The translations under genes and the position numbers were made by a program. 32,000 nt of DNA from Candidatus Methanophagaceae archaeon (GTDB lineage Archaea > Halobacteriota > Syntropharchaeia > Alkanophagales > Methanospirareceae): contig PQXB01000001.1 of the NCBI GenBank assembly GCA_003194425.1, forward strand, positions 850,444 to 882,443, given 5' to 3'. Positions 8,521-32,000 of the stretch are shown here, piece after piece (positions within the stretch are counted from its first letter, which is position 1; each line of letters opens with the position of its first letter). The notes beneath the pieces were generated by a model. That model saw only the letters and a program-made list of their open reading frames with translations. It was not told the origin of the DNA and searched no databases.

Positions 8521-8556
8521 GAGAGCTGAGGTTACAGAGCTGAGAGAGCTGAGGTG
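8497..8556. repeat. Tandem duplication (about 22-23 bp x2, CAGAGCTGAGAGAGCTGAGGT, plus a partial third copy) spanning the cdhC stop and the rad50-like start
   Basis: Read directly: TGCAGAGCTGGT TGCAGAGCTGAGAGAGCTGAGGT TACAGAGCTGAGAGAGCTGAGGT GG. Confidence 0.8.
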
Positions 8557-11337
8557 GAAATGATTCTGAAGACGCTGGCGCTGCGGAATTACCGAAAATA
8601 TAAGGACGCGAATTTGGAGTTCCCGGACGGCGTTCTCGGAATTGTGGGGCTGAACGGCGTAGGGAAAACAACGCTCGTAGAGGCGGTCGGCTGGGCTTTG
8701 TTCGGTCACCACGCGGCTCGGACGACGAAAGAGCTCATAAAACGCGAAGGGGCGTCGCCGCACGAGGTTTGCAGTGTCGCTTTAGAATTCGAGTTAGAGG
8801 GCGACAGCTACAAGGTGGTGCGGAAAATGGCGGGCAGGAATTTAGTGCCAAAAGCGAGCCTCGTCGTGAACGGGCGACTCGAAACAAACAACCCTGACAC
8901 GGTCACGAAAGTCGTAGAAGAGCGAATGGGAATGGACTACAAATCTTTCTTCACCTCGGTCTTCGCAAGGCAGAAGGAGTTGAACGCACTCTCCTCGATG
9001 AAGGCGGCGGAACGGAAACGGCTCGTGCTTCGAATGCTCGGCATTGAACAGGTGGAGAAGGGAGTGCAAGCGGTGAGAGAGGACAGACGCGGGAGAGAAA
9101 AGAAGGTAGAGGGGCTGAAGGCGGCAACCGTTGACAGAGAGGGTAGAGTGAAAGCAAAGGTGCTCGTGGGTGAGCGAGAGGAGTTGGAGAAGGCGAAAGA
9201 GAGGCTCTTACCGCTTCTAAAAAAGACCGAAGCCGCTGGAGTAGCGAAGGAGAGGGAGTTGGCGGAGGCGAAGCAGGAGTTGGAGGCTGCCACGAGGAAG
9301 TACGAAAAATTTGTGGCGTTGAGCAGTGAGTTGACTGAGCGGAGGAGCGTGTTAGAGAACACTAGGGAGCGGAGGGGAGAGAAAGAGCGAGAATTGGAGG
9401 GGTTGGCGGAGAAGAGGAGGCGGCTTGAAGGGCTTGAGGGGAAGGAGGAGGAATATTTTAGGTTGGGTGCGCGGAAGGAGAGGCTGGACGCGGTGCGAGA
9501 AGAGTACCGGCGGAAGCAGGAACTGCTGAAGAGCGAGCGGAAGACAAGGCAGGAAATAACGAGGCGGAAGGGAAAAATAAGCGGGCTGAAGGAGAGTGTG
9601 GCGGGGTTTGAGGGCGTCGAGGAGGCTTTTGCGTCGCAGGTTCGGCTGCGCGGAGAACTGGAGGCGGCGAGGGAGAAATACCAGCGAAAGAGGGAGTTAG
9701 AGAGGCGAGAAGAGCGGACACGACAGGAGGTAAAGGAAAGAGTAGAGAGGACGAAGCGGTTAGAAGAGGCGTGGCAGGGGTTTGTGGCTCTTGAAGTTGA
9801 AGAGCGGGTGGAGGAAGTGAAGCGTGAGGTCGAAGGGCTAAAGAGGGAGCGGGAGCGTGTTCTTTCTTCGCTCGGCGCTCTTAAATCCGCGGTGGCACAG
9901 AACGAGCGGGAGATTGAAGAGGCGAGAGAGAAGTGGCAGAAGGTCGCAGAGTTGGGTCCAGAGGGCGAGTGTCCGCTCTGCGAGCGGGAGTTGGGGCCGC
10001 ACTACGAGGTGCTGAAAAAGAAGTTGTGTGCAGAGTTAAAAACGAAAACAGAGCGTTCAGATTTGCTCTCTGAAGAGCGCAGGCAGAGAGAGGCGGAACT
10101 TGCTTCAAAGGAACGAGAGGAGACTTTGCTTGAAAAGAAGGTCAGGGAGTTGGAACGCGGCGTAGCCAAGAAGCGAGAGTTAGCGTTAAAAAAAGAGAAA
10201 GAGGCAGCGGAGTTAAGAGTGTGGAGGGAGGAGTTAGAGCGGTTAGAAACGGATTTGAAGCCTCTTGCAGGCGTGGAATTTAACGAGGGCGACTACAAAG
10301 AAGTTGTTTTGAAGTTGGGCGAGTTTGAAGACCGAGTTAGGCAGAAGAAGGATTTAGAGCAGACGGTAAGGTACGAAGAGGGTGAGTTGGAGCGGTGGAA
10401 GAAAGAATTAGAGCAGTTAAAAAGAGATTTAACGCTGCTTAGAGAGGTAGAATTTGACGAGCGTGAGTACAAGGGTGTTGTTTCTGGTTTGAAGAATCTT
10501 GAGCAGGTGTACGAGGAAATAATCGGGTTGCGGGCGGAGGTCGGAAGAATTGGCGAGGTGAGCGGCAGTCTGGGGCGGTTAAGCAAGTTGGAAGGGTGTG
10601 TTGCGGAGAGCGTGGCAGCGTTGGAGCGGCAAGTGGCGGAACTGGGGTTTGAGAAGACCGCGTACGAGGAGTTGAAGGCAAGGCACGAGCGGAGGCGGGA
10701 GGAATTGAGCGAGTTGGAGAAGGAGCATTTGAGGAAGAAGAACGAGTTCGAGAATGTGTGCAGGGAGGAGGAGCGAGTGTTGGACAAAATAGAGGAGCAG
10801 AGGTGGTTGCTGGCGGAGAAAGAGAAGGAGGAGACCGAGATAATGTATTTCCGCCTGTTGGAGCGGTTAATGAGCGATTTCAAGGTGCATTTGGTTGGCA
10901 GGATTCGCCCGATGCTCTCTGATTACGCGTCTGAGATGCTTGGAAAGATGACGGACGGAAAATACAGCAAGTTGGAGTTGGACGAGAACTACGATGTTTT
11001 TATTTACGACGAGGGCACACCTTACGAGTTGAGCAGGTTCTCGGGCGGCGAGGAGGACTTGGCGAACCTCTGCCTGCGGCTTGCGATTTCCGCAGTCGTC
11101 GCAGAGAGGAGTGCGATTCAGACAAATTTTATTATTCTCGACGAGATTTTCGGGTCGCAGGACGCTCTTCGGAAACGGAATATTATTACGGCGTTGAACG
11201 AGCTCTCGAAGAAGTTTCGGCAGATATTTCTGATTACGCACATCGAGGAGGTGAAGGATTTTATGGAACACGTGCTGCAGGTGACGGAGGACGAGGCGGG
11301 GGTGAGCTGGGTGGGCGCGGGAAGGGGAGGGGTGTAG
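8554..11337 (+). CDS. rad50: Rad50/SbcC-like SMC-family ATPase with central CxxC zinc hook
   Basis: Walker A is GLNGVGKTT. The Q-loop-like segment is VFARQKEL. The middle is about 600 aa of heptad-rich E/K/R/L coiled coil, with GECPLCERELGPHY (C-P-L-C at 9970-9981) at its centre. The signature is FSGGEEDLANLCLRLAIS, Walker B is FIILDEIFGSQD, and the H-loop is LITHIEE. The probable true start is ATG 8560 (MILKTLALRNYRKY). Confidence 0.8.
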   Translation: MEMILKTLALRNYRKYKDANLEFPDGVLGIVGLNGVGKTTLVEAVGWALFGHHAARTTKELIKREGASPHEVCSVALEFELEGDSYKVVRKMAGRNLVPKASLVVNGRLETNNPDTVTKVVEERMGMDYKSFFTSVFARQKELNALSSMKAAERKRLVLRMLGIEQVEKGVQAVREDRRGREKKVEGLKAATVDREGRVKAKVLVGEREELEKAKERLLPLLKKTEAAGVAKERELAEAKQELEAATRKYEKFVALSSELTERRSVLENTRERRGEKERELEGLAEKRRRLEGLEGKEEEYFRLGARKERLDAVREEYRRKQELLKSERKTRQEITRRKGKISGLKESVAGFEGVEEAFASQVRLRGELEAAREKYQRKRELERREERTRQEVKERVERTKRLEEAWQGFVALEVEERVEEVKREVEGLKRERERVLSSLGALKSAVAQNEREIEEAREKWQKVAELGPEGECPLCERELGPHYEVLKKKLCAELKTKTERSDLLSEERRQREAELASKEREETLLEKKVRELERGVAKKRELALKKEKEAAELRVWREELERLETDLKPLAGVEFNEGDYKEVVLKLGEFEDRVRQKKDLEQTVRYEEGELERWKKELEQLKRDLTLLREVEFDEREYKGVVSGLKNLEQVYEEIIGLRAEVGRIGEVSGSLGRLSKLEGCVAESVAALERQVAELGFEKTAYEELKARHERRREELSELEKEHLRKKNEFENVCREEERVLDKIEEQRWLLAEKEKEETEIMYFRLLERLMSDFKVHLVGRIRPMLSDYASEMLGKMTDGKYSKLELDENYDVFIYDEGTPYELSRFSGGEEDLANLCLRLAISAVVAERSAIQTNFIILDEIFGSQDALRKRNIITALNELSKKFRQIFLITHIEEVKDFMEHVLQVTEDEAGVSWVGAGRGGV

Positions 11338-11438
11338 AGTAAAGTTCGTGAGTTCAAGAGGAGTTACAAGATATAACTTATGTAATCTGATTATAAATAC
11401 TTTTCATTTTGAATAAGAGGCGTATTTCAATTAGTGGA

Positions 11439-12054
11439 TCATTGTTGATCTTGATCACTTTTATTTTTCGTCCATAAAACCACTCTTAACCTTTCATAAA
11501 TTTTCCCAAAAATACAATTTAAAGGAAAATAAGGGTCTATTTTATAATCCAAGCCAAATTTTTCTATGAACTCTTTCCACTCTTTTTTGGTGAAATAACT
11601 TATTCCATTATCCTCTAAAATCAATTTTGATAGGAATCGTTTACCATACCAACTCTCTTTGTTTAGGACTGTAATGTCATCTATTAAAACATTCTTACGT
11701 GCTACCCGCATCATCTCTTTTACCGCTTGATACGGGTCAACGATGTGATGCAGAACCCCATTTGCCGCAACATGATCAAATGAGTTATTTTTGAATGGAA
11801 GAGACCCCGCCACACAGATTACATTATGTTCTGGAGACCTACCCTTTTGAATCGAGTATTTTAGCATAGAAACATTGTACGACATTTCCGGTGCCAGAAC
11901 CGATGTCTAAAAATGTTTCGTTTGATTTTATGTTACCAAGTGCAATCATAACTAAACATTTACGGAAAAATGAGACGATTCGATTATCGGTTAAGATGAA
12001 CTTTTCGTATTCTTCGGGATTCTCATATTATTTATTTTTTATTATTTCTGTCAT
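11439..12054 (-). pseudogene. Class I SAM-dependent methyltransferase, disrupted (in-frame TAA after codon 8 plus a 1-nt frameshift near 11842-11849)
   Basis: Hand translation of the minus strand gives ATG (12054) TEIIKNK-TAA-YENPEEYEKFILTDNRIVSFFRKCLVMIALGNIKSNETFLDIGSGTGNVVQCFYAKILDSKG-stop. The tracked ORF (11439..11885) continues in the next frame as RSPEHNVICVAGSLPFKNNSFDHV...RVARKNVLIDD. Removing one base from the AAAAGGG run restores one frame. The span is 616 nt, not a multiple of 3. Confidence 0.55.
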
Positions 12055-12057
12055 TAA

Positions 12058-12426
12058 TTATCCCTTTATGTAAAATCCAATTATGCACACACCAATCGTT
12101 ATTAAAATTACCCCCACCCACGCACCTCTGCTAAATGGTTCTCCCAACAAAGCATTGCTCATTAAAACAACCAAAGGATAACTTAAACTTAAAAAAGGAT
12201 ACGCATAGCTCACTCGAACGTTTGAAAGAACATACAGCCACAAAATAAAACTTATTACATATAACACTACACCAGCTAAAAAATACACATTCCCGATAAG
12301 TGATTGAATTGTTGCGATGCTGATTAATGGCATATTTTTAGGAATCTCACTCACCCCAAACTTTAATAAAACTTGACCTACTGCAACGATGAATACGCAC
12401 AATAATATACAGATTAAATTTTTCAT
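12058..12426 (-). CDS. Small four-helix EamA/SMR-like membrane protein (ArnE/ArnF-like putative lipid-linked sugar flippase subunit)
   Basis: 122 aa with four hydrophobic helices. The pattern GQVLLKFG...LYVLSNVRVSYAYPFLSLSYPLVVLMSNALLGEPFS...GVILITIGV is typical of single EamA-domain proteins found next to GT-C transferases. The function is an inference. Confidence 0.6.
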   Translation of the reverse strand: MKNLICILLCVFIVAVGQVLLKFGVSEIPKNMPLISIATIQSLIGNVYFLAGVVLYVISFILWLYVLSNVRVSYAYPFLSLSYPLVVLMSNALLGEPFSRGAWVGVILITIGVCIIGFYIKG

Positions 12427-12446
12427 TTTTTAGCTTAGCCTCTCCT

Positions 12447-13037
12447 TTAGCCACTCTTTTTACACACCACAACATAATGAGCATATAAAAGATTTGGAAT
12501 ATTTTTTACAAATTCAGTCACAAAACCGTTCTCTTCTAACAATTTTGTCATCTCTTCTTTTGGAACATAATACATCTCCAAAGATCGTGTCATAATAAAG
12601 TCATGCACATAATTCCAAAGATATTTGTAGAGGGGTTTGTCGTTCATATCCTTCACAATTAGACGCCCGTTCTCTTTTAAGAGTTCGTTTATTTTCTTAA
12701 ATATTGCAAGATGGTCTTTTTTAGGAATGTGATGTATTAAATCCAAGCAGGTTATTACATCGTATCTCTTGTTGGCGGAAAAACATGTAATATCCGCACA
12801 AGCGAAATTCAAATTTGAGTTAGCTGCAACCCTGTTATTTGCGGCATTAACTCTCTTTTTGTCCTTTTCTATTCCTGTTATCTTCAGTTTCGGTCTTTCT
12901 TTTGATAAGATAAAGCAGAATGTTCCGTATCCACTGCCTATGTCAAGAAGTTCTCCTGCTTTTTTAGGAACATTTTCGATTATTTTCTCGAACGGACATA
13001 TTATCGAGCGGAGCCTGTCGTATAATTTTGGATGCAT
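12447..13037 (-). CDS. Class I SAM-dependent methyltransferase
   Basis: Motif I is LLDIGSGYGTF. An acidic post-I residue is present (ITGIEKD). Motifs DVITCLDLIHHI and ENGRLIVKD are also present. Confidence 0.8.
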   Translation of the reverse strand: MHPKLYDRLRSIICPFEKIIENVPKKAGELLDIGSGYGTFCFILSKERPKLKITGIEKDKKRVNAANNRVAANSNLNFACADITCFSANKRYDVITCLDLIHHIPKKDHLAIFKKINELLKENGRLIVKDMNDKPLYKYLWNYVHDFIMTRSLEMYYVPKEEMTKLLEENGFVTEFVKNIPNLLYAHYVVVCKKSG

Positions 13038-13038
13038 G

Positions 13039-14505
13039 TTAATCTCCTATAAAGTTTCCGATGAGAGTCATAATTTTACTCAACCAAAAATATGTTGAAT
13101 AGTACCAACTCGCAATTAAAACTACAGTCAATAAGAGAAATATTATTATCTTTCTTCTCGTCTTGGAATTTCCTAATCTGATTTCAGATCGAACTCTATT
13201 TATCGAACAAGCACCATAAGACGCAAAAATAATTAGGAAAGGCATAATTTGCAAATGATATCTAACTTCTGCGAGTATAAGTGAATGCATAAGTGTATAA
13301 TAAAATATCAATAAGATCAACAAATATGCTTTTCTATCCCATTTTTGATAAAACACGATTCCAAAGATGGCGAGGGGCAGCAATATAATATAGGGAAGAA
13401 CTGTTAATGGTGCTAATATTATAAATAACCATTTTGGGACAGGATTAATAAAACGATTTTCAAAATAATTAGCAAAAAACTTGTTTGGAATTCCCAAAAA
13501 ATAAGCAAATTTTTTAAGATCTAAACATAAAACAGAGATAGGTTTCTCTTTGATAAATTCAAAACCTTTTTTATAAAATAATCTGTCCCTCTCAACTTCG
13601 TTATGAGCCGTCATGTTTAGAGACTTATATGCCTTCGTTTTATTTTCCAAAGCACTACAAGCCATTCCCGTTGCATCGGGATTATTTCCAAGCCAAAAAC
13701 AATGTCCGCCATTTGTGCTCACGGGAACGAATTTATGATGCACATTATAATTCCTTACTGCCCACGGAGATACAACAACCATAATAATAACGAAAATCGC
13801 AATGAAATTCATCAAATTCTTCTTCATCTCTTTTGAGTCTTTTGAGGAGAGTTCTTTTGAAGAGAGTAAGAGCCAAAAAAGTATGAAAGGAATGAATCCC
13901 AGAATAATAGGTCTAACGAGCATTGCAAGACCTAAAGGTACACCAGCCATTAACAGATTTTTTAGCGATGCTTGCTCATAAACTTTTAATAAATATAAAA
14001 TTGATAAGCTAAGTAAAAATATAAATATTGTTTCGGTAAGTAGCAGACTAGAGAAGATGATAAAAGTAGGATAGACAGCAGCAATAAAGCCGGATATTAT
14101 GCCTATCTTTTTATTAAGGACTGTTTTTCCGAGGAAGTAGATCACGATGCAGGTAAGCGAACTGACAAACGCCTGGAATATGCAGGCTATTTGAGGGTTG
14201 TATCCAAAAAGAGAGTAAATAGCTGCGAGAAAGAACGGTTGCCCTGGTGGCCAATACGAGCTTGTACCGCCGCTATTTCCTCCGCCATATCCTTTTCCTT
14301 CTATGAGTCCAATGGCTAAGCTGTCGTAAGCGGTTGCATCGCCAATGACCACAGTAGGAAAAAGAATAACATAAAACAATCGGATAACCAAAGAGATTCC
14401 AAATATGAGAACTAGAACTTTCCACTCCTCTAATTCTCCTAAACGGTCTAAGAAATTTTTGATTTGTTCCCTTTTCACTACCCTTAGCCTTAGCCCAACA
14501 GACAT
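13039..14505 (-). CDS. GT-C superfamily glycosyltransferase (ArnT/PMT-like, GT39/GT83 type), polytopic membrane protein
   Basis: 488 aa with at least 10 predicted hydrophobic helices. The N-terminal loop has DATAYDSLAIGLIEGKGY...YWPPGQPFFLAAIYSLFG, characteristic of ArnT/dolichyl-phosphate-mannose transferase-like enzymes. Confidence 0.75.
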   Translation of the reverse strand: MSVGLRLRVVKREQIKNFLDRLGELEEWKVLVLIFGISLVIRLFYVILFPTVVIGDATAYDSLAIGLIEGKGYGGGNSGGTSSYWPPGQPFFLAAIYSLFGYNPQIACIFQAFVSSLTCIVIYFLGKTVLNKKIGIISGFIAAVYPTFIIFSSLLLTETIFIFLLSLSILYLLKVYEQASLKNLLMAGVPLGLAMLVRPIILGFIPFILFWLLLSSKELSSKDSKEMKKNLMNFIAIFVIIMVVVSPWAVRNYNVHHKFVPVSTNGGHCFWLGNNPDATGMACSALENKTKAYKSLNMTAHNEVERDRLFYKKGFEFIKEKPISVLCLDLKKFAYFLGIPNKFFANYFENRFINPVPKWLFIILAPLTVLPYIILLPLAIFGIVFYQKWDRKAYLLILLIFYYTLMHSLILAEVRYHLQIMPFLIIFASYGACSINRVRSEIRLGNSKTRRKIIIFLLLTVVLIASWYYSTYFWLSKIMTLIGNFIGD

Positions 14506-14507
14506 CC

Positions 14508-15417
14508 TTAATCCCCTCCTCCTGCACCCACAACCCCTACCCTAACCGCCGCCTCAGGAACAGCATAAAGAATCGCCACAACCAAAACCGCCCACGAGAC
14601 CAAGCACAAAACCATCCCTTTGTCCTTAAAAATCATCTCGGTCTCGCCACCGAAGTTCTCTGCGTGAACCAGAAATAAATACCTGAAAAGCCCGTAAATC
14701 GGAAACGGAATCGTGAGCATCAGGTAAATGTCGTCTGCGAGGAAAGTGTAGAGCGAGTAAGAAATTATCAGAGCAGCCGAAGAAATGCCGATCATTTGGT
14801 CGAGCATTTCAGTCGAATACGCTTCAAGAGTCCTGCGATGCCGCCTCGCTTCCTCCTCGCCGAGCAAGACCAGCTCGTGCCTCCGCTTACAGAGAGCCAA
14901 GAACAAGGCGAGCAGGAACGCACAAACAATTAGCCAAGGAGAGGCGAAGAGATTAATTGCCAGGCACCCCGCGATTGCACGAATGACAAAGCCGACCGAG
15001 ATGACCAAAAGATCAACGATGACGAAATATTTAAGAAACAGCGAATAGAGCAGGATTAAAAAGAGGTAGCAAACAGATATTACAAAAAACGATTTATTTA
15101 TTAAATACGACCCCCCCCCCCGCAAAAATAATCATAAGAAGAGCGAAGAACAACGCGTGCGACTTCTTCAACTTCCCAGAGGCAATTGGTCGCTTGCTCT
15201 TCGTCGGATGTTTCCTGTCCTGCTCGAAGTCTAAGATGTCGTTGAGGATGTATTCGCTTCCGGAGAGGAGGGAGAAGAGAGCGAAGGCGGCGAGAACATT
15301 GAGCCACATCTGGAAGTTCAGCAGGTTTACAGAGAAGACGATTCCGACGAATAAGATCAGGTTCTTGTACCACTGCTTCGGTCGCATCGCGGTTACGAGC
15401 TCTTTTAGCATTTTCAT
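14508..15417 (-). pseudogene. UbiA-family prenyltransferase resembling decaprenyl-phosphate phosphoribosyltransferase (DPPR synthase), split by a frameshift in a G11 homopolymer
   Basis: The N-terminal ORF has MRPKQWYKNLILF...NDILDFEQDRKHPTKSKRPIASGKL, the DPPR-synthase-type first Asp-rich motif. The C-terminal ORF (14508..15125) continues the family's transmembrane pattern. The two frames meet at C11 on the plus strand (15111-15121). With 10 G the reading ...IIFAGGGSYLINKSFF... is continuous, giving about 303 aa. Confidence 0.75.
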
Positions 15418-15436
15418 TACATCTATCCTTCTTCTT

Positions 15437-15589
15437 TTATTTATGTTCCACATCTACATTTATCTGCTCACTGACCTTCCCTTGAAGCTTCCTGTCAGCA
15501 GTAATCAACTTGTAATTCCCTTTTACTTTTGAAGTTATATTAACATAAATTGCGTCATAAAATGTTCTTCCAAATTTTCCCGTTTTATT
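15437..15589 (-). pseudogene. C-terminal remnant of a PIN-domain (VapC-like) toxin gene
   Basis: Hand translation gives NKTGKFGRTFYDAIYVNITSKVKGNYKLITADRKLQGKVSEQINVDVEHK-stop. The ...YDAIYV...LITADRKL pattern is the last conserved block of PIN domains. There is no start codon, and an upstream stop lies at 15590-15592. Confidence 0.4.
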
Positions 15590-26588: not shown

Positions 26589-27797
26589 GTGTTAAGGGAA
26601 AATGTGGTCTACTGCGGGGATTGCAAGAGTGTGCTTGCAGGGTTTCCGGAGAAGTCGGTGGATTTGATTTACGCCGACCCGCCGTTCTTCTCGAACAGGC
26701 ATTACGAGGTCGTCTGGGGCGACGGCTACGAGCTGCGGGCTTTTGAAGACCGCTGGAAGGGCGGGATTGAAAATTACACTGCCTGGATGGAAGACAGGAT
26801 TAGAGAGTGCCACCGGGTTCTGAAGGAGACGGGCTCGTTTTACTTGCACTGCGACTTCCACGCGAACGCGCATTTACGAATCTCGCTCGACCGGGTCTTT
26901 GGGAAGGGAAATTTTAGGAACGAGATAATTTGGTGCTACACTGGACCGTCGAACACAAAGAGATATTTTCCGCGAAAGACAGACACAATCTTTTTTTATG
27001 TCAAAAACAGAGACGCAAATTACTTTTTTGATGTGGAAAAAATTCGTGTTCCCTACAAAAAATTAGAGACAGGAAAAACGAGCGGTATTTTTAAAGGAGA
27101 AGCGACGCTTTCGGAGAAAGGCAAAATTCCAGAGAATTGGTGGGAAGAGAAACGAGACGGAATGTCACCAGTCGGGCGGTTAAAAAGAGAACGGCTTGGC
27201 TACCCGACGCAGAAGCCTGAAGCCCTCCTTGAACGCATCATAAAAGCGTCTTCAAACGAAGGCGATTTGGTCTTAGATCCGTTCTGCGGCTGCGGGACTT
27301 CGATCGCAGTGGCACACAGGCTCGGTCGCCGCTGGGTCGGAATTGATGTCTCGCCGACTGCGTGCAAAGTTATGGTCAGGCGAATGCGAAGAAGTCTTGG
27401 CGTGAGCGTCGGCGAGAGCGAAATAATCGGGCTTCCGAGAACTGTGGAAGAGTTAAAAACGATGAAGCCGTTTGAGTTTCAGAATTGGGTCTGCGAGCAG
27501 TTGAACGGGCAGGTCTCTTCCAAGAAGAGCGGAGACTTCGGGATTGACGGCTGGCTGATCGACGGCAGACCGCTGCAGGTCAAGCAGTCCGAGAATGTTG
27601 GAAGAAATGTGGTTGACAATTTCGAGACGGCGTTGAGACGGGCGGGGCGGAACCGGGGCGTCGTTGTTGCTTTTAGCTTCGGTAAAGGTGCAAACGAAGA
27701 GACGGCAAGGGCTCGACTACAGGACGGGCTGGAGATTGAACTTAAGACCGTAGAGGAGATTTTAAGAGGAGAAAATTACTCGCCTGAGGTTGCGTAG
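26589..27797 (+). CDS. DNA methyltransferase (beta-class N6-adenine/N4-cytosine type, motif IV before motif I) fused to a C-terminal PD-(D/E)xK Mrr-cat-like domain
   Basis: VDLIYADPPFFSN (motif IV, DPPF) precedes VLDPFCGCGTSIAVA (motif I). The last about 110 aa, FEFQNWVCEQL...SGDFGIDGWLIDGRPLQVKQSENVG...GVVVAFSF, fits the restriction-endonuclease (Mrr_cat) core D...(Q/E)xK. GTG start. Confidence 0.75.
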   Translation: MLRENVVYCGDCKSVLAGFPEKSVDLIYADPPFFSNRHYEVVWGDGYELRAFEDRWKGGIENYTAWMEDRIRECHRVLKETGSFYLHCDFHANAHLRISLDRVFGKGNFRNEIIWCYTGPSNTKRYFPRKTDTIFFYVKNRDANYFFDVEKIRVPYKKLETGKTSGIFKGEATLSEKGKIPENWWEEKRDGMSPVGRLKRERLGYPTQKPEALLERIIKASSNEGDLVLDPFCGCGTSIAVAHRLGRRWVGIDVSPTACKVMVRRMRRSLGVSVGESEIIGLPRTVEELKTMKPFEFQNWVCEQLNGQVSSKKSGDFGIDGWLIDGRPLQVKQSENVGRNVVDNFETALRRAGRNRGVVVAFSFGKGANEETARARLQDGLEIELKTVEEILRGENYSPEVA

Positions 27798-28069
27798 ATT
27801 TCGTAGGGCATTATTTTTTTATTCACCTTCTTCTTCCCTTTCAACCTGCTTACGAGGTCGGCGGCTTTCTTCTTCTGCTCCCGCTTCTTCAACCGTTCCA
27901 TTATGCTCGCCATTTCCTTCTCTTTACCCTTCTCCGCCTCAGCACTGCCGCCGTTTTCTCCCTCCGCTTTCTCGCTTGCGTAGCCTCCTTCTGTCTCTTC
28001 TACTTCTTCTTCAACCCCTCCCTCTTCCGCCTCGTCCATTCCTTCAAAAACCATTATTTCTACACCCAT
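27776..28069 (-). CDS. Small charged low-complexity protein ending in ...Ser-Gly-Glu; candidate Pup-like modifier
   Basis: 97 aa. The N-terminal half is acidic and G/E/A-rich (DEAEEGGVEEEVEETEGG...), and the C-terminal half is basic and helical-looking (MERLKKREQKKKAADLVSRLKGKKKVNKK). The C-terminus is YEIYATSGE-stop, verified codon by codon. GGAGGT lies 9 nt upstream of the ATG. It is the last gene of the PafA/Dop-like operon. The function is inferred from context only. Confidence 0.55.
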   Translation of the reverse strand: MGVEIMVFEGMDEAEEGGVEEEVEETEGGYASEKAEGENGGSAEAEKGKEKEMASIMERLKKREQKKKAADLVSRLKGKKKVNKKIMPYEIYATSGE

Positions 28070-28146
28070 TTTAACTCAACCTCCTTTCTTGAAGTTTTTT
28101 GCTGCTGTTTTTTGATAAACCTTTTTCAAAAAAGGACTTAAGGTTC
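28070..28146 (-). promoter_or_regulatory. Intergenic control region: A/T hairpin with U6 tract, TATA-like TTTATCAAAAAA, and the SD GGAGGT of the small ORF
   Basis: The minus strand reads CCTTTTTTGAAAAAGG TTTATCAAAAAACAGCAGCAAAAAACTTCAAGAAAGGAGGTTGAGTTAAAATG. The palindrome is at 28120-28135 and the SD at 28079-28084. Promoter and terminator roles are inferred. Confidence 0.35.
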
Positions 28147-29841
28147 TTAATAAATCACCTTGTCAGGGTGCAACCGTTTCGCGGCTGACAACACCTCTTC
28201 TATTTGCCTCCCCTGCCCTTCTCCTTCTCCCTCTCCTCCTCCCTCTCCTTCTCCCCTGCACATCTCCGCACCAATTTCCGCCTTATTCAGCATAAACGGC
28301 TCGTCCAACGTTACTTTCGCCTCGTTAAGCACCAGCGTTGACCAACTCACACTCCGCACGTGCGACCCAAATCTTCGCAGTATTTCCACCCTGAAGAAGT
28401 CCCTCGTGTTCTCGGGTGCGTTGCTCAGCGCGTATTTCACCCGCTCCGAGAACGACGACCAACCGACCCCCGGCAATTCCCGCTCCGCAAACGCCAGCGA
28501 CTCCTTCTGACTGTAAAGACTCCCGCTACCCCCCCTCCCTCTCCCTCTCCCTCCTTCAGCCCCGAGGTCGAGGCAGTTCAGCACACTCGCGTCCAGCAGT
28601 GCGTACTGGTTGCAGACGCTAATTCCTTCGGACGCGGTCTTCGGCTCGTAATTCACGAGCAGCGCCAACTTCGTCACCCAGTCGAGACCGTCCACAAAAT
28701 CCTCCACTCGCCGAGCCTCCAGCTTCTCTAACGCCTCCTCAAACGCCTTCTTTCCCTCCCCTTCCCACTTCCCTCCCTCCCAACTCCCCTTTTCCTGCAT
28801 TTCCTCAATTTTCTCGAGGTAAAACCGCAGAACCGCGACCGCGTCCGTCCGCTCACCGCCCTTCAACCTCACCCGCCACTCGCACTCCTGCGTGTCCGCG
28901 GAAATCTCCTTAAAACTCCTCACAGGGTCTTCCAACACAGGTGCGTCGTCCAAGAACCCTGCTTCAAACGCGGAAATTACCAACGCCTGCAAAATGTCGC
29001 GCAAAAAAATCGCGTACTCAGAACGGAGAGCCTCAAAATGAATGTCGTGCAGTCGCCAGTACTTGTTGCGTGCTGCGTGAGGCTGGTCTCGTGTGTTCAG
29101 AATGCCTCTACCAGCAGTGGTTGAGAGCGACGACTTGCGAGTAACGAACATCGCTCTCGGCGAAATAACGAACTTCACCCCGCCCCGCTTCCCCCCAACC
29201 GCCCCAACGAAGTCACCAGAGACGACGTCTCCCGAGCCAGTGAGTAGAATTCTCGTGACGACCCACGGAATTAACGCCCGCTCTACACGACTCCAGTCCT
29301 TGCACGCTGCCCGTTTTGTTAGAAAATTTCCGTGCGTGGCGTAAGTGAGGGTCTTTACTCTTCCCGCTTTGCCACTGCCACTGAGTCTGGCTGTGCTGGT
29401 GGCACTGCCTCCGCCACCGGCACTACCACCGCCGCTGCGGTTCACGACCGTGTTCGCGACATTGTTTTTGTGAACTGCTACTCGCTTCTTCAACGCCAGA
29501 CCCGCCTCCCGCGAGCCTACAAAAGCGTAAATCTCAGAGGCTTTGTCGTACGCCACAGCGTCAAAGGGGCTGTTGTAAGAGGGCGTTGAAATCTCAAGAT
29601 GCCCCAAATCGTTGTAAATCCGGCACCCGTTCTCGCCGAACCACGAGGAAATTTTCGACTCGTGCGTCTCTTGTGAAATTTCGGTAGCGGTGTCCCACTT
29701 CACAACCCGCGAAAATCTTCGCCGTCTTAAACCCTGAATCGCAGCGCTGACGAGCAGAGAAGGATTTAAACCCGCTCTCGCACTCACAGGGTACTCCTGC
29801 TCTACTCCTCTTATTTTGTTTTCTGTCCCCTCCATAAGCAC
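28147..29841 (-). CDS. Pup ligase/deamidase family protein (PafA/Dop-like carboxylate-amine ligase fold), paralog B (Dop-like C-terminus)
   Basis: Ordered motifs: GVEQEY, ENGCRIYNDLGHLEISTPSY, ATHGNFL, LIPWVVTRILLTGSG, KFVISPRA, GILNTRDQPHA, WRLHDIHFEALRSE, DPVRSFKEISAD, LDWVTK, and NTRDFFRVEILRRFGSHVRSVSWSTLVL (compare Dop ...TRAYFRGECLRRFG......SW, from memory). An alternative start is ATG 29835. Confidence 0.8.
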   Translation of the reverse strand: MLMEGTENKIRGVEQEYPVSARAGLNPSLLVSAAIQGLRRRRFSRVVKWDTATEISQETHESKISSWFGENGCRIYNDLGHLEISTPSYNSPFDAVAYDKASEIYAFVGSREAGLALKKRVAVHKNNVANTVVNRSGGGSAGGGGSATSTARLSGSGKAGRVKTLTYATHGNFLTKRAACKDWSRVERALIPWVVTRILLTGSGDVVSGDFVGAVGGKRGGVKFVISPRAMFVTRKSSLSTTAGRGILNTRDQPHAARNKYWRLHDIHFEALRSEYAIFLRDILQALVISAFEAGFLDDAPVLEDPVRSFKEISADTQECEWRVRLKGGERTDAVAVLRFYLEKIEEMQEKGSWEGGKWEGEGKKAFEEALEKLEARRVEDFVDGLDWVTKLALLVNYEPKTASEGISVCNQYALLDASVLNCLDLGAEGGRGRGRGGSGSLYSQKESLAFAERELPGVGWSSFSERVKYALSNAPENTRDFFRVEILRRFGSHVRSVSWSTLVLNEAKVTLDEPFMLNKAEIGAEMCRGEGEGGGEGEGEGQGRQIEEVLSAAKRLHPDKVIY

Positions 29842-29856: not shown

Positions 29857-31770
29857 TTATTCTCCCTCTTCTCTCTCTTCTCCTTCTCTCTCTTCTCCCT
29901 CCTCCCTCCCCTTTTTCTCCGCCTTTTTTATCTCTTCAACCTTCCTTTTTATCACCTCCTCGTCCCACCCGTCCAGCTCGTCAAACTTGTAAGTCTTGTT
30001 GTTAGAACACATCAAGTACTCCAAATACGGATTCCTTGCGATTCTGCTCCTTATTTCCTGGCTTATTTCCTCCTCCCACCCCCTAATGTCCTCCTCTTCA
30101 CCCAGAAGTCGCACAAGAACCTCCCTCCTTCTTCCCCCCCGCCCGTCCCTGCTTCTCGACTCGTGCAGAAAGACCACCACCGCACTCGGTCGCCTCCCGA
30201 GTTCAGGGTACTGCTCAAACAACCGCATATATTCCTCCGCACTCGGCGGCCCCATATCTATTTTTATCTTCGGCGCCCGATTTATCGTTATCTTGTTCCA
30301 ACTCAACGCCGCGTCCTCGAACCCCGGCACCGCCGCCAGCCGCACCCGCAATTCCGCTCTCGAACCCTTCGGCGGAGACAACAAAGCCTCCCCTAACTCC
30401 TCTTCAGTCAGTAGCCGCACCACGCCCACTCGGTCCGCTACTTGCTCGTACAAGTCGTGTTCGCCGAGATTGGTAAACTCGAACGAAGCCGCTATTTCCT
30501 TCTCCGCCTGCTCGTCCATTTTATAAAGGCTTCGGTAGTCGAACCGCCCCTTTGGTCTCTCTTCGTACTCAAAATCCGCGAGTTCATTTTTTAACACCCA
30601 CCACTTCAGCACCCACTCCAAACGCCGCACCACAAACGGGTCCTCAAGCAGCCCCTGACCAAACTTGTCGCAAAGCCTCTTAAAAGTGTCCAGCACATAT
30701 TTGTCCCAGTAGGAAGTCTCCCTCTCTGCGAACAACTCCTCAATCGCCGCGAGGTAGTGAGAATTGAGGTAGTCGATCGCTGACTCGGTCCGCCTGTTCA
30801 TCAATTTTATCCGCCACCCGCCTTCCCCGTTCGTGTTCGCCGAGATCTCCTTGAAAGTCTGAAGAGGGTTCCAAATCTCCTCGATGTGTGTAATTTTTCC
30901 GCACTCGATCGCGTCAATTACGTACGAAGTGAGTGCGTTGTTGAGCAGTCGTGTTACTTCAGACCGAACACCCTCACCAGAAGTAACATGCACACGATAA
31001 AAATCCTTCGTACTCAAGGGCTCGTCCCGCGTCGACAAAATCGGCCACTGCGACGGCGACTCTGTGAGAACGCGCTTCGAAACCATCGCTTTCGGCGAAA
31101 TTACATATTTTAAACCTCCTCTCACTCCTCTTTCTCCTCTCCCTGCCCCCCTCTCTCCACCTGCCTTCTCCGCCACGAACCCGCCAGCGCCAAAGAAAAT
31201 CTTACGAAGCACCAAGAACGGCACGAGCAGACCCTCTTTGCCCACGAATTTCTTCCGCTTCACAATGTAGGACTCGTGCGTGCCTCTACTGTACCGCTTG
31301 TCAATCTCGACATTCGCCTTCCAGCACTGAATGCTTACGTGTGTTGCGTGTGCGGAGCCTCCTCGTCCCCCTTTCCCTCGTCCCTGTCCCTGCTTCCCCA
31401 GCCTCTTTCTGAGCCTCTCGTTCGCTTCCTCAACGCCGATTTGCATAAACAACTCCGCCGCCTTGTCGTACTTCAGCACCTCAAACGCGTCCCTGCACTC
31501 CGGCGTCGCGATTTCAAGGTGACCTCCAGTGCAGATGTAAATCCGCGAGCCGTTCCGCAAGAACCCATCGTTCCGCCGCCGCAGCTTCGAGCAGACCGCT
31601 GCCGTGCCGTCAAAAAAAGAGTAATTCTCAAGCGCACGAATCACTTCGTCCACGTGGTAAAATCTGGCGTACCTGTACAACCCCGGCGATTCCGAACTTA
31701 TTCCGACCCTGAATTCGTGCTCCAACCCCTGCCACCTGCTCAAATCCCCTTCCATCTTTTTTCCTCCCAT
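29857..31770 (-). CDS. Pup ligase/deamidase family protein (PafA/Dop-like), paralog A
   Basis: Ordered motifs: GLEHEF, FLRNGSRIYICTGGHLEIATPEC (compare PafA [23 protein letters not shown]), GTHESYI, LVPFLVLRKIFFGAGG, KYVISPKA, PILSTRDEPL, YRVHVTSGEGVRSE, NPLQTFKEISAN, and LEWVLK. ATG 31755 has the better-spaced SD (GGAGGAAAAAAGATG). The protein has G/R-rich inserts and an E/R/G-rich tail. Confidence 0.8.
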   Translation of the reverse strand: MGGKKMEGDLSRWQGLEHEFRVGISSESPGLYRYARFYHVDEVIRALENYSFFDGTAAVCSKLRRRNDGFLRNGSRIYICTGGHLEIATPECRDAFEVLKYDKAAELFMQIGVEEANERLRKRLGKQGQGRGKGGRGGSAHATHVSIQCWKANVEIDKRYSRGTHESYIVKRKKFVGKEGLLVPFLVLRKIFFGAGGFVAEKAGGERGAGRGERGVRGGLKYVISPKAMVSKRVLTESPSQWPILSTRDEPLSTKDFYRVHVTSGEGVRSEVTRLLNNALTSYVIDAIECGKITHIEEIWNPLQTFKEISANTNGEGGWRIKLMNRRTESAIDYLNSHYLAAIEELFAERETSYWDKYVLDTFKRLCDKFGQGLLEDPFVVRRLEWVLKWWVLKNELADFEYEERPKGRFDYRSLYKMDEQAEKEIAASFEFTNLGEHDLYEQVADRVGVVRLLTEEELGEALLSPPKGSRAELRVRLAAVPGFEDAALSWNKITINRAPKIKIDMGPPSAEEYMRLFEQYPELGRRPSAVVVFLHESRSRDGRGGRRREVLVRLLGEEEDIRGWEEEISQEIRSRIARNPYLEYLMCSNNKTYKFDELDGWDEEVIKRKVEEIKKAEKKGREEGEEREGEEREEGE

Positions 31771-31836: not shown

Positions 31837-32000
31837 TTAATAATGCATTCCCGTCTCCTCGTCAGGCATCTCGCCGTAGCCCGACGCCAAAATCTCCTCC
31901 GCCCTTCGCTGCACGAACTTGTCAAAACCCTCTTTCAAATGCCGCATATTCACGCCAATCTCCTCCACGCGTTTGTACCGCCGCTCCAAATCCGCAGTCT
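31837..32000 (-). CDS. 3' end of an unidentified gene, truncated by the window edge, directly upstream of the PafA/Dop-like pair
   Basis: Hand translation gives ...TADLERRYKRVEEIGVNMRHLKEGFDKFVQRRAEEILASGYGEMPDEETGMHY-stop (TAA at 31837-31839). It is on the same strand, 66 nt upstream of paralog A. No family was recognised from 53 residues. Confidence 0.4.
   Translation of the reverse strand, partial: TADLERRYKRVEEIGVNMRHLKEGFDKFVQRRAEEILASGYGEMPDEETGMHY

Follow-up and report, generated by a model that had tools for sequence, protein, structure and literature searches.

A candidate Pup-analogous modifier encoded beside paired Pup-ligase-family enzymes in ANME-1 and related archaea

Do archaea encode a protein tag of the kind used for pupylation in bacteria? 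The question is raised by a 32,000-nucleotide stretch of DNA from a Candidatus Methanophagaceae archaeon (assembly GCA_003194425.1, contig PQXB01000001.1, positions 850,444 to 882,443; hereafter the window), in which a 97-residue open reading frame (ORF) lies next to two paralogous enzymes of the Pup-ligase family. In bacterial pupylation, Dop deamidates the C-terminal Gln of Pup to Glu, and PafA ligates the phosphorylated side-chain carboxylate of that Glu to lysine (PMC3511204). Pup-type tagging has been placed in bacteria (Actinobacteria, Nitrospirae and the UBact phyla), and archaeal tagging has been attributed to SAMP, Urm1 and ubiquitin-like proteins (PMC3511204, PMC3493965, PMC12288473, PMC11354881). 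Our search of the full-text literature, with subscription-only papers outside its reach, found no description of a Pup-type modifier or of pupylation in archaea. An earlier note, made from the letters of this DNA alone, had nominated the ORF as a candidate modifier. On the analysis presented here, we consider it likely, by analogy with Pup and UBact, that the ORF encodes a modifier of a new archaeal sequence family that is covalently conjugated via its terminal Glu. The genes concerned are as follows.

27776..28069, minus strand: candidate Pup-analogous modifier, 97 residues (conserved C-terminus, codon-level selection, AlphaFold2 model, synteny)
27779-27781, minus strand: terminal Glu codon of the modifier, followed by its stop codon at 27776-27778
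28147..29841, minus strand: paralogue B, Pup-ligase family, Dop-like, 564 residues (PF03136 Pup_ligase, E 3.6e-65)
29857..31770, minus strand: paralogue A, Pup-ligase family, 637 residues, PafA-like loop length (PF03136 Pup_ligase, E 1.5e-52)
31837..32000, minus strand: 3' end of a coiled-coil/OB/AAA (CC-OB-AAA) ATPase gene that opens the operon and is truncated at the window edge (70 bits to the AAA protein of locus L003; ends ...ETGMHY)

The modifier ORF is a real gene under strong purifying selection. A Nei-Gojobori comparison of the last 46 codons in 48 distinct DNA copies gave proportions of synonymous and nonsynonymous difference (pS and pN) of 0.65 and 0.08 in the modifier frame, for a ratio of nonsynonymous to synonymous change (dN/dS) of 0.056, with variability at third codon positions (0.28) four to five times higher than at first and second positions (0.05-0.07). 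In four of the five alternative frames dN/dS was 1.5-2.4, and the value of 0.17 in the remaining antisense frame is expected because that frame shares third positions with the modifier frame. The 97-residue translation quoted in the earlier note is the exact product of this minus-strand ORF, and gene calls on six independent metagenome contigs give an identical ORF in the same gene neighbourhood. Among 5.8 billion proteins searched, modifier homologues turned up in 62 protein clusters of 74-123 residues; every cluster is annotated as a hypothetical protein, and the named sources are all ANME-1/Methanophagales, Methanospirareceae or similarly labelled metagenome-assembled genomes (MAGs). A sceptic might still read the ORF as a chance frame spanning the spacer and the strand opposite the 3' end of a convergent methyltransferase gene, given that a plus-strand mirror ORF exists at 27790..28074 and that the N-terminal half of the protein is of low complexity. 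This reading is refuted by the frame comparison, which identifies the minus-strand ORF as the gene and the mirror ORF as an artefact, and it also sits poorly with conservation in more than 60 clusters and with retention of the gene even where it is unlinked from the operon; its remaining probability is negligible. The convergent gene is described by the following entry.

26589..27797, plus strand: N6_N4 DNA methyltransferase fused to an Mrr-type restriction endonuclease domain, convergent with the modifier

The two genes have 27776..27797 in common, in agreement with the 22-nucleotide overlap described in the earlier note, and the same overlap recurs on an independent metagenome contig (L091).

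Synteny ties this gene to the enzyme pair. One genome per GTDB species was scanned with an alignment of the 564-residue enzyme, which yielded 478 relatives; the analysis continued with the best 79 loci. These loci fall into three groups: ANME-1/Methanophagales, Syntrophoarchaeum, Methanoxibalbensis and Alkanophaga (enzyme identity 56-72%); Bathyarchaeia (34-41%); and Methanomethylicota (31-33%) together with one Thermodesulfobacteriota MAG. Gene order in Syntropharchaeia is fixed, running from the CC-OB-AAA ATPase through paralogue A and paralogue B to the small ORF. The earlier note had proposed to look for orthologous small ORFs beside archaeal PafA/Dop homologues. Of the 53 ANME-1/Syntropharchaeia loci with room, meaning at least about 300 nucleotides of downstream sequence, 45 have one immediately behind paralogue B, and small ORFs of a second peptide family adjoin the enzymes in 16 of 16 loci of the Bathyarchaeia/Methanomethylicota type with room. 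The same four-gene order also appears on a more distant archaeal contig (enzyme 44% identical), where a 73-residue ORF ends in ...KSIMPYEIHAKSGE. The window itself carries archaeal markers, namely EF-1alpha, RFC, ribosomal S10, RNase P p30, Thg1, CdhC and HcyBio. We regard it as almost certain that the protein product of the ORF exists and that its function is bound up with the Pup-ligase pair.

A small, Lys-rich product beside ATP-dependent enzymes with a ligase fold might also be the precursor of a ribosomally synthesized and post-translationally modified peptide (RiPP), or a small basic nucleic-acid-binding protein linked to these enzymes by accident. RiPP precursors combine a conserved leader with a variable core; the modifier has the opposite arrangement, an invariant C-terminus behind a variable N-terminus, and its cassette holds no protease, transporter or tailoring gene. 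Accidental linkage is hard to reconcile with an association with the enzyme pair that is conserved across three archaeal lineages. Both versions of this explanation are very improbable.

Conservation within the modifier is concentrated at its C-terminal end. In the alignment of homologues the N-terminal half, residues 1-45 of the window protein, is acidic, rich in Glu and Gly, and variable in sequence and length, and the C-terminal 48-50 residues are about 87% identical among relatives whose adjacent enzyme is only 56-72% identical. The conserved core reads IMERLK...AADLVSKLKGKKK.NKKIMPYEIYATSGE, the final 14 residues (KKIMPYEIYATSGE) are near-invariant, and the tail ...KKIMPYEIYAT[S/A]G[E/Q] is invariant across the alignment. 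In the window the terminal codons are GGC GAG TAA, that is Gly-Glu-stop, and the tail reads ...YEIYATSGE. Conservation of the terminal Gly-Glu/Gln, on which the earlier note had staked its proposal, extends to 62 of 62 ANME-type clusters, with endings of SGE in 57, SGQ in three and AGE in two (three Gln to 59 Glu). Such endings are rare by chance, as only 0.82% of 20,724 stop-terminated ORF segments from the collected loci end in G[EQ]. The further suggestion, that deamidation is superfluous when Glu is already the last residue, applies to this genome and no further: some orthologues end in Gln, and the Dop-like paralogue is retained throughout.

The predicted structure follows the same division. 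An AlphaFold2 model built from a 37-sequence alignment assigns residues 1-40 a predicted local distance difference test score (pLDDT) below 50 and places a helix at residues 43-82 (pLDDT about 90), a break at Pro88 and a short helix at 88-95, as expected from the earlier description of a disordered N-terminal half followed by a helix. The calculated isoelectric point (pI) is 4.05 for residues 1-50 and 10.1 for residues 51-97, which bears out the description of an acidic half and a basic helix, opposite in charge to the helix of Pup. If the terminal Glu is attached to lysine, the computed remnant masses are +445.18 Da for ATSGE after chymotrypsin, +721.33 Da for IYATSGE after GluC and +1354.61 Da for the tryptic remnant IMPYEIYATSGE.

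A second peptide family occupies the equivalent position in other archaea. In Bathyarchaeia and Methanomethylicota the orthologous A/B pair is followed within about 100 nucleotides by an ORF of the form ...LFPSFKKRKLKR..IKKEH.EVVAPPG[E/Q], 27-41 residues long at these loci and 27-64 (mostly 37-40) across the family, which was found in all 16 loci with room; the family is represented in L072-L089 and L007, for example at L081:7572-7697 and L087:7572-7667, and its computed remnant, VVAPPGE, is +649.34 Da. On the Thermodesulfobacteriota contig a longer peptide (...KKVHEEIIAPPGQ) lies just upstream of the pair (L088:4171-4500). A profile search with this family returned at least 120 clusters, all hypothetical proteins, and all 120 listed clusters end in G-[EQ], 63 with Gln and 57 with Glu. 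Over the last 14 codons pS was 0.85 and pN 0.17, so that synonymous change is saturated and replacements are few. Versions of 27-40 residues may often be missed altogether in annotation.

Both peptide families follow orthologous paralogue A/B pairs and share a basic stretch followed by E-Phi-Phi-A-x-x-G-[E/Q] exactly at the C-terminus. The Bathyarchaeia-type peptides end in Gln about as often as in Glu, whereas the ANME-type modifiers end mostly in Glu, and the former possess neither the acidic disordered N-terminal half nor an AAA ATPase in the operon. Common descent was considered and set aside: the ANME profile finds no Bathyarchaeia-type peptide, and hhalign aligns only the last nine residues with a probability of 1.3%. 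At the level of sequence we treat the likeness as a shared motif, and not as proven common descent. Modifiers from ATPase-bearing operons have an acidic disordered N-terminus of 30-50 residues, and the ATPase-less Bathyarchaeia-type peptides comprise scarcely more than the basic stretch and tail; by analogy with Pup, this correlation would fit an N-terminus that serves as the threading end.

The strongest argument for a Pup-like role is this terminus, toggling between Glu and Gln in two families tied to the same enzyme pair. A residue that is always last, always follows Gly and alternates between Glu and Gln points to a reactive gamma-carboxylate; neither folding nor binding alone would readily account for it. 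In the mechanism we propose, one Pup-ligase-family paralogue would bind the modifier helix, ATP would serve to convert the gamma-carboxylate of the terminal Glu into an acyl phosphate, and the activated Glu would be transferred to the lysine epsilon-amine of target proteins. Paralogue B, Dop-like and with its catalytic Asp kept, would deamidate Gln-ending precursors and probably remove the tag. The CC-OB-AAA ATPase would recognise the tag through its coiled coil and thread the disordered acidic N-terminus, thereby unfolding the tagged protein or delivering it to the 20S proteasome.

The acceptor need not be a protein, and it is not readable from sequence. Pup ligases belong to the glutamine-synthetase/GCS2 superfamily of carboxylate-amine ligases, and the C-terminal Glu might instead be ligated to a small-molecule amine or amino acid, with the modifier acting as a carrier or substrate in the manner of LysW or of RimK-type tailing; LysW also ends in G-E. 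The cassette, however, encodes no biosynthetic enzymes, its third component is an ATPase of the unfoldase type, and the partner enzymes are homologues of PafA and Dop and not the ATP-grasp enzymes LysX or RimK. We judge a small-molecule acceptor improbable and return to conjugation to proteins as the favoured interpretation.

Assignment of the two paralogues within this scheme is by resemblance only, with B as putative deamidase/deconjugase and A as putative ligase. Paralogue B scores 128 bits against Dop and 59 bits against PafA in comparison with PDB sequences, and 190 and 143 bits, respectively, against NCBIfam; the Asp of its Y-x-D-x-x-H-x-E loop is present in 82 of 82 sequences examined, and RDEP is mostly replaced by RDQP (HGN and RDQP in the window copy). 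Paralogue A is equidistant from the two structures (Dop 70 bits, PafA 64 bits) and keeps HE[SN], RDEP and RxH (HES, TRDEP and RVH in the window copy); its loop in the window reads NGSRIYICTGGHLEIATPEC, with orthologues in L011-L089. NCBI names both paralogues PafA2 family proteins, and their scores of 134.8-189.8 bits lie far below the cut-offs of 492 and 551 for the PafA (TIGR03686) and Dop (TIGR03688) equivalogs. Paralogue A of the window itself ends in ...EEGE, and we considered this as a fused tag; only three of about 70 orthologues end in GE, which marks the ending as a coincidence.

The window holds only the end of the ATPase gene. Full-length copies (L003:4823-6454, L093:6236-8002 and L009:3122-4660, with a complete gene also at L090) begin with a heptad-rich segment, followed by SPPLD, an OB-like stretch (GFVVEKLEDGAVVNLNG) and a single AAA module, an N-domain layout of coiled coil and OB as in PAN, Rpt and Mpa. 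The closest solved relatives of the AAA module are the D2 domains of VAT/Cdc48. Of 57 copies, 54 end in TGMH[F/Y] and one more in TGMHL. No proteasome genes were found within the locus, and delivery of tagged proteins to the 20S proteasome by this ATPase is plausible but unsupported.

Several observations weigh against a covalent, Pup-like modifier. The full canonical motif set (GxExE, Y-x-D-...-H-x-E, HEN, RDEP and RxH) occurs in neither paralogue. Paralogue B has HGN or HSS for HEN, and paralogue A has Cys or His in the column of the catalytic Asp (PafA D57/Dop D94), where the residue is Cys in essentially every sequence from Syntropharchaeia (YICTGGHLE) and His in those from Bathyarchaeia, with Asp confined to a few sequences; the pairing of Cys with Asp was also obtained independently from a HMMER alignment to the sequence of the Dop structure. 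Five archaeal peptides gave no match at E<=10 to either the Pup family (PF05639/TIGR03687) or the UBact family (PF20513/NF033388), hhalign gave a probability of 0.2% against each family, and the positive controls worked (M. tuberculosis Pup, 3e-22 and 4e-21; UBact, 2.3e-17 and 1.8e-18). The helix of Pup is acidic and the archaeal helix strongly basic (pI 10), and the modifier has a very high Lys content, atypical of a tag. The small ORF is not adjacent to paralogue B in eight of 53 loci, several of which are AMOR-vent MAG lineages and two of which, from Alkanophaga, contain no modifier candidate. Finally, the TGMH[FY] tail of the ATPase was considered as an HbYX docking motif and rejected, as it fails the pattern [LVIMGAPFYW][FY]x applied to archaeal proteasomal ATPases (PMC3493965).

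The main rival to conjugation is a non-covalent partner (regulator, inhibitor or adaptor) that binds the Pup groove of the enzymes or the coiled coil of the ATPase and is never ligated. A conserved helix and tight synteny are equally compatible with such a partner, the catalytic motifs of both enzymes depart from the canonical ones, and there is no homology to Pup or UBact to draw on. Binding alone nevertheless leaves unexplained why two unrelated-looking families end exactly in G-[EQ] and interchange Glu with Gln, as would be expected of a reactive side-chain carboxylate generated by deamidation, and we consider a purely non-covalent role unlikely. Under covalent conjugation, which we continue to prefer, the Cys or His of the PafA-like paralogue A in place of the catalytic Asp hints at altered ligation chemistry; together with HGN/HSS in paralogue B, these substitutions may reflect either altered chemistry or a division of labour between the enzymes.

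Some of the exceptional loci merit description in their own right. In ANME-1 lineages from AMOR hydrothermal vents the modifier lies away from the enzymes, between a PhoU/TrkA gene and PRPP (phosphoribosyl pyrophosphate) synthase (L001:10001-10267 and L002:10001-10267), and overlaps the start of the latter by 4 nucleotides. The AAA-A-B operons of sister AMOR MAGs have no downstream ORF (compare L052, L054 and L063). Since the modifier is placed elsewhere in related AMOR MAGs, the gene is kept even when unlinked. At the A/B junction of both Alkanophaga species, an alternative frame over the acidic tail of paralogue A encodes a basic segment ending ...RGGE or ...RRGE (L060:5865-5930, L064:5910-6011 and L010:7922-8023), which is probably a frame artefact of GAA/GAG repeats.

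How, then, does this system relate to known tags? Like actinobacterial Pup, which works with PafA, Dop and Mpa/ARC, the modifier is a small protein with a predicted disordered N-terminal part and a predicted helix-forming C-terminal part. Its ORF ends exactly in G-[E/Q], a free C-terminal Glu or Gln that interchanges among orthologues and calls for no C-terminal processing, just as Pup species differ in encoding a terminal Gln or Glu. Its cassette likewise combines two paralogous PF03136 enzymes, one PafA-like and one Dop-like, with a coiled-coil/OB ATPase. Unlike Pup, it is found in an archaeon, and its tail is ...YEIYATSGE where that of Pup is ...YVQKGGQ. The Gly-Gly-Gln/Glu ending of Pup is replaced by SGE (or SGQ, AGE), in which G-[EQ] is kept and the preceding Gly is not.

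UBact, the predicted Pup analogue of Nitrospirae, Verrucomicrobia and other Gram-negative phyla, is likewise a small protein beside PafA/Dop homologues, has a basic region before its end and a terminal [ST]-G-[E/Q] (...RQRTGE compared with ...YATSGE), and has, like the archaeal modifier, been identified by comparative genomics only. The archaeal modifier differs in its conserved core and in its host. An hhalign pairing of ASIMERLKKR with UBact DSLLKRMRKV was dismissed as noise (E 0.36). When 1.84 billion representatives were searched with a profile of the modifier's conserved half, only four matches came back, all ANME-type, and no wider family emerged. SAMPs, Urm1 and ubiquitin-like beta-grasp modifiers resemble the present protein in being small archaeal tags with a C-terminal Gly near the attachment point. 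They are folded beta-grasp proteins that end in Gly-Gly and are activated by E1-like adenylation of the alpha-carboxylate, whereas the modifier is predicted to be disordered and helical, has Glu or Gln as its last residue and is associated with ligases of the glutamine-synthetase fold. On present evidence the modifier probably works like Pup and UBact but is a member of neither family: the enzyme family and the logic are those already known, and the system departs from its bacterial counterparts in its modifier families, its domain of life, the charge of the helix and the residues of the active sites.

A broader reading, towards which we lean only slightly, is that several lineages of uncultured archaea (ANME-1/Syntropharchaeia, Bathyarchaeia and Methanomethylicota) use a full pupylation-like system, either in addition to SAMPs or in their place, with at least two previously unrecognised modifier families, a hint of altered ligation chemistry and possibly an ancient history in Archaea. 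Because the A/B pair is orthologous across deeply separated archaea, pupylation-type tagging may be ancient in this domain and not an actinobacterial invention. A tagging cassette conserved in archaea and equipped with a modifier of its own would give the domain a second, mechanistically unrelated tagging system and would reopen the origin of pupylation and its relation to the archaeal proteasome. Post-translational regulation would become testable in unculturable, methane-oxidising ANME-1, and a tag with a basic helix and a Ser-Gly-Glu tail would provide a natural comparison for groove recognition by PafA and Dop.

The spacer between paralogue B and the modifier contains candidate expression signals.

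28079..28084, minus strand: Shine-Dalgarno sequence GGAGGT (read from the sequence; motif kept in relatives)
28112..28126, minus strand: candidate archaeal promoter AAAAAGG-TTTATCAA, comprising a B recognition element (BRE)-like sequence and a TATA-like box, about 47 nucleotides upstream of the ATG
28120..28135, minus strand: palindrome CCTTTTTTGAAAAAGG, rich in A/T and with a T6 tract, immediately past the stop codon of paralogue B (read from the sequence)

The Shine-Dalgarno sequence reported earlier is present 9 nucleotides before the ATG at 28069. Relatives keep GG[G/A]GGTTGAGTTAAA and then GTG or ATG where the window has its ATG, with ...VFEGM after it and GGGGGTTGAGTTAAA kept before the GTG/ATG start. 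Internal Met codons had led the earlier note to leave the N-terminus open; this conserved start region now supports the first ATG and fixes the N-terminus at Met1. The palindrome and TATA-like element described there are both present, with CCTTTTTTGAAAAAGG at 28135..28120 and TTTATCAAAAAA from 28119, and the palindrome with its T6 tract is a possible terminator or attenuator of the upstream operon. As for a promoter belonging to the modifier itself, also suggested at the outset, many relatives conserve the TATA-like box between the two genes: AAAG(T)TTTATCAA occurs at the equivalent place, about 45 nucleotides upstream, in L012, L013, L018, L023, L025, L026, L030, L037 and L050, and other clades carry GAAAATATAAATAG or GAAAATGATAAATAG at this position. 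The predicted 5' untranslated region is about 20 nucleotides. The resemblance of these spacer elements to archaeal BRE/TATA sequences supports a putative dedicated promoter for the modifier.

Contigs carrying ANME-type or Bathyarchaeia-type cassettes are in several cases filed under unrelated taxa, namely Desulfobacteria (L028), Nitrosotalea (L043), Patescibacteria (L080) and Bathyarchaeia (L070), most likely through binning error, and such misfiling matters for any census of the tagging system. Elsewhere in the window, a low-GC island at 11400-15500 (33-46% compared with about 53% elsewhere) encodes S-adenosylmethionine (SAM) methyltransferases, an EamA fragment, a PMT_2/STT3-like glycosyltransferase and a UbiA prenyltransferase. 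For UbiA, two overlapping ORFs (14508-15125 and 15094-15453) stand in place of a single gene, which suggests a frameshift or a pseudogene. The plus strand at 8554-11337 encodes a 927-residue SMC/Rad50/SbcC-like ATPase, a gene with unusually pronounced GC skew (+0.49) as well as AT skew between 9 and 11 kb.

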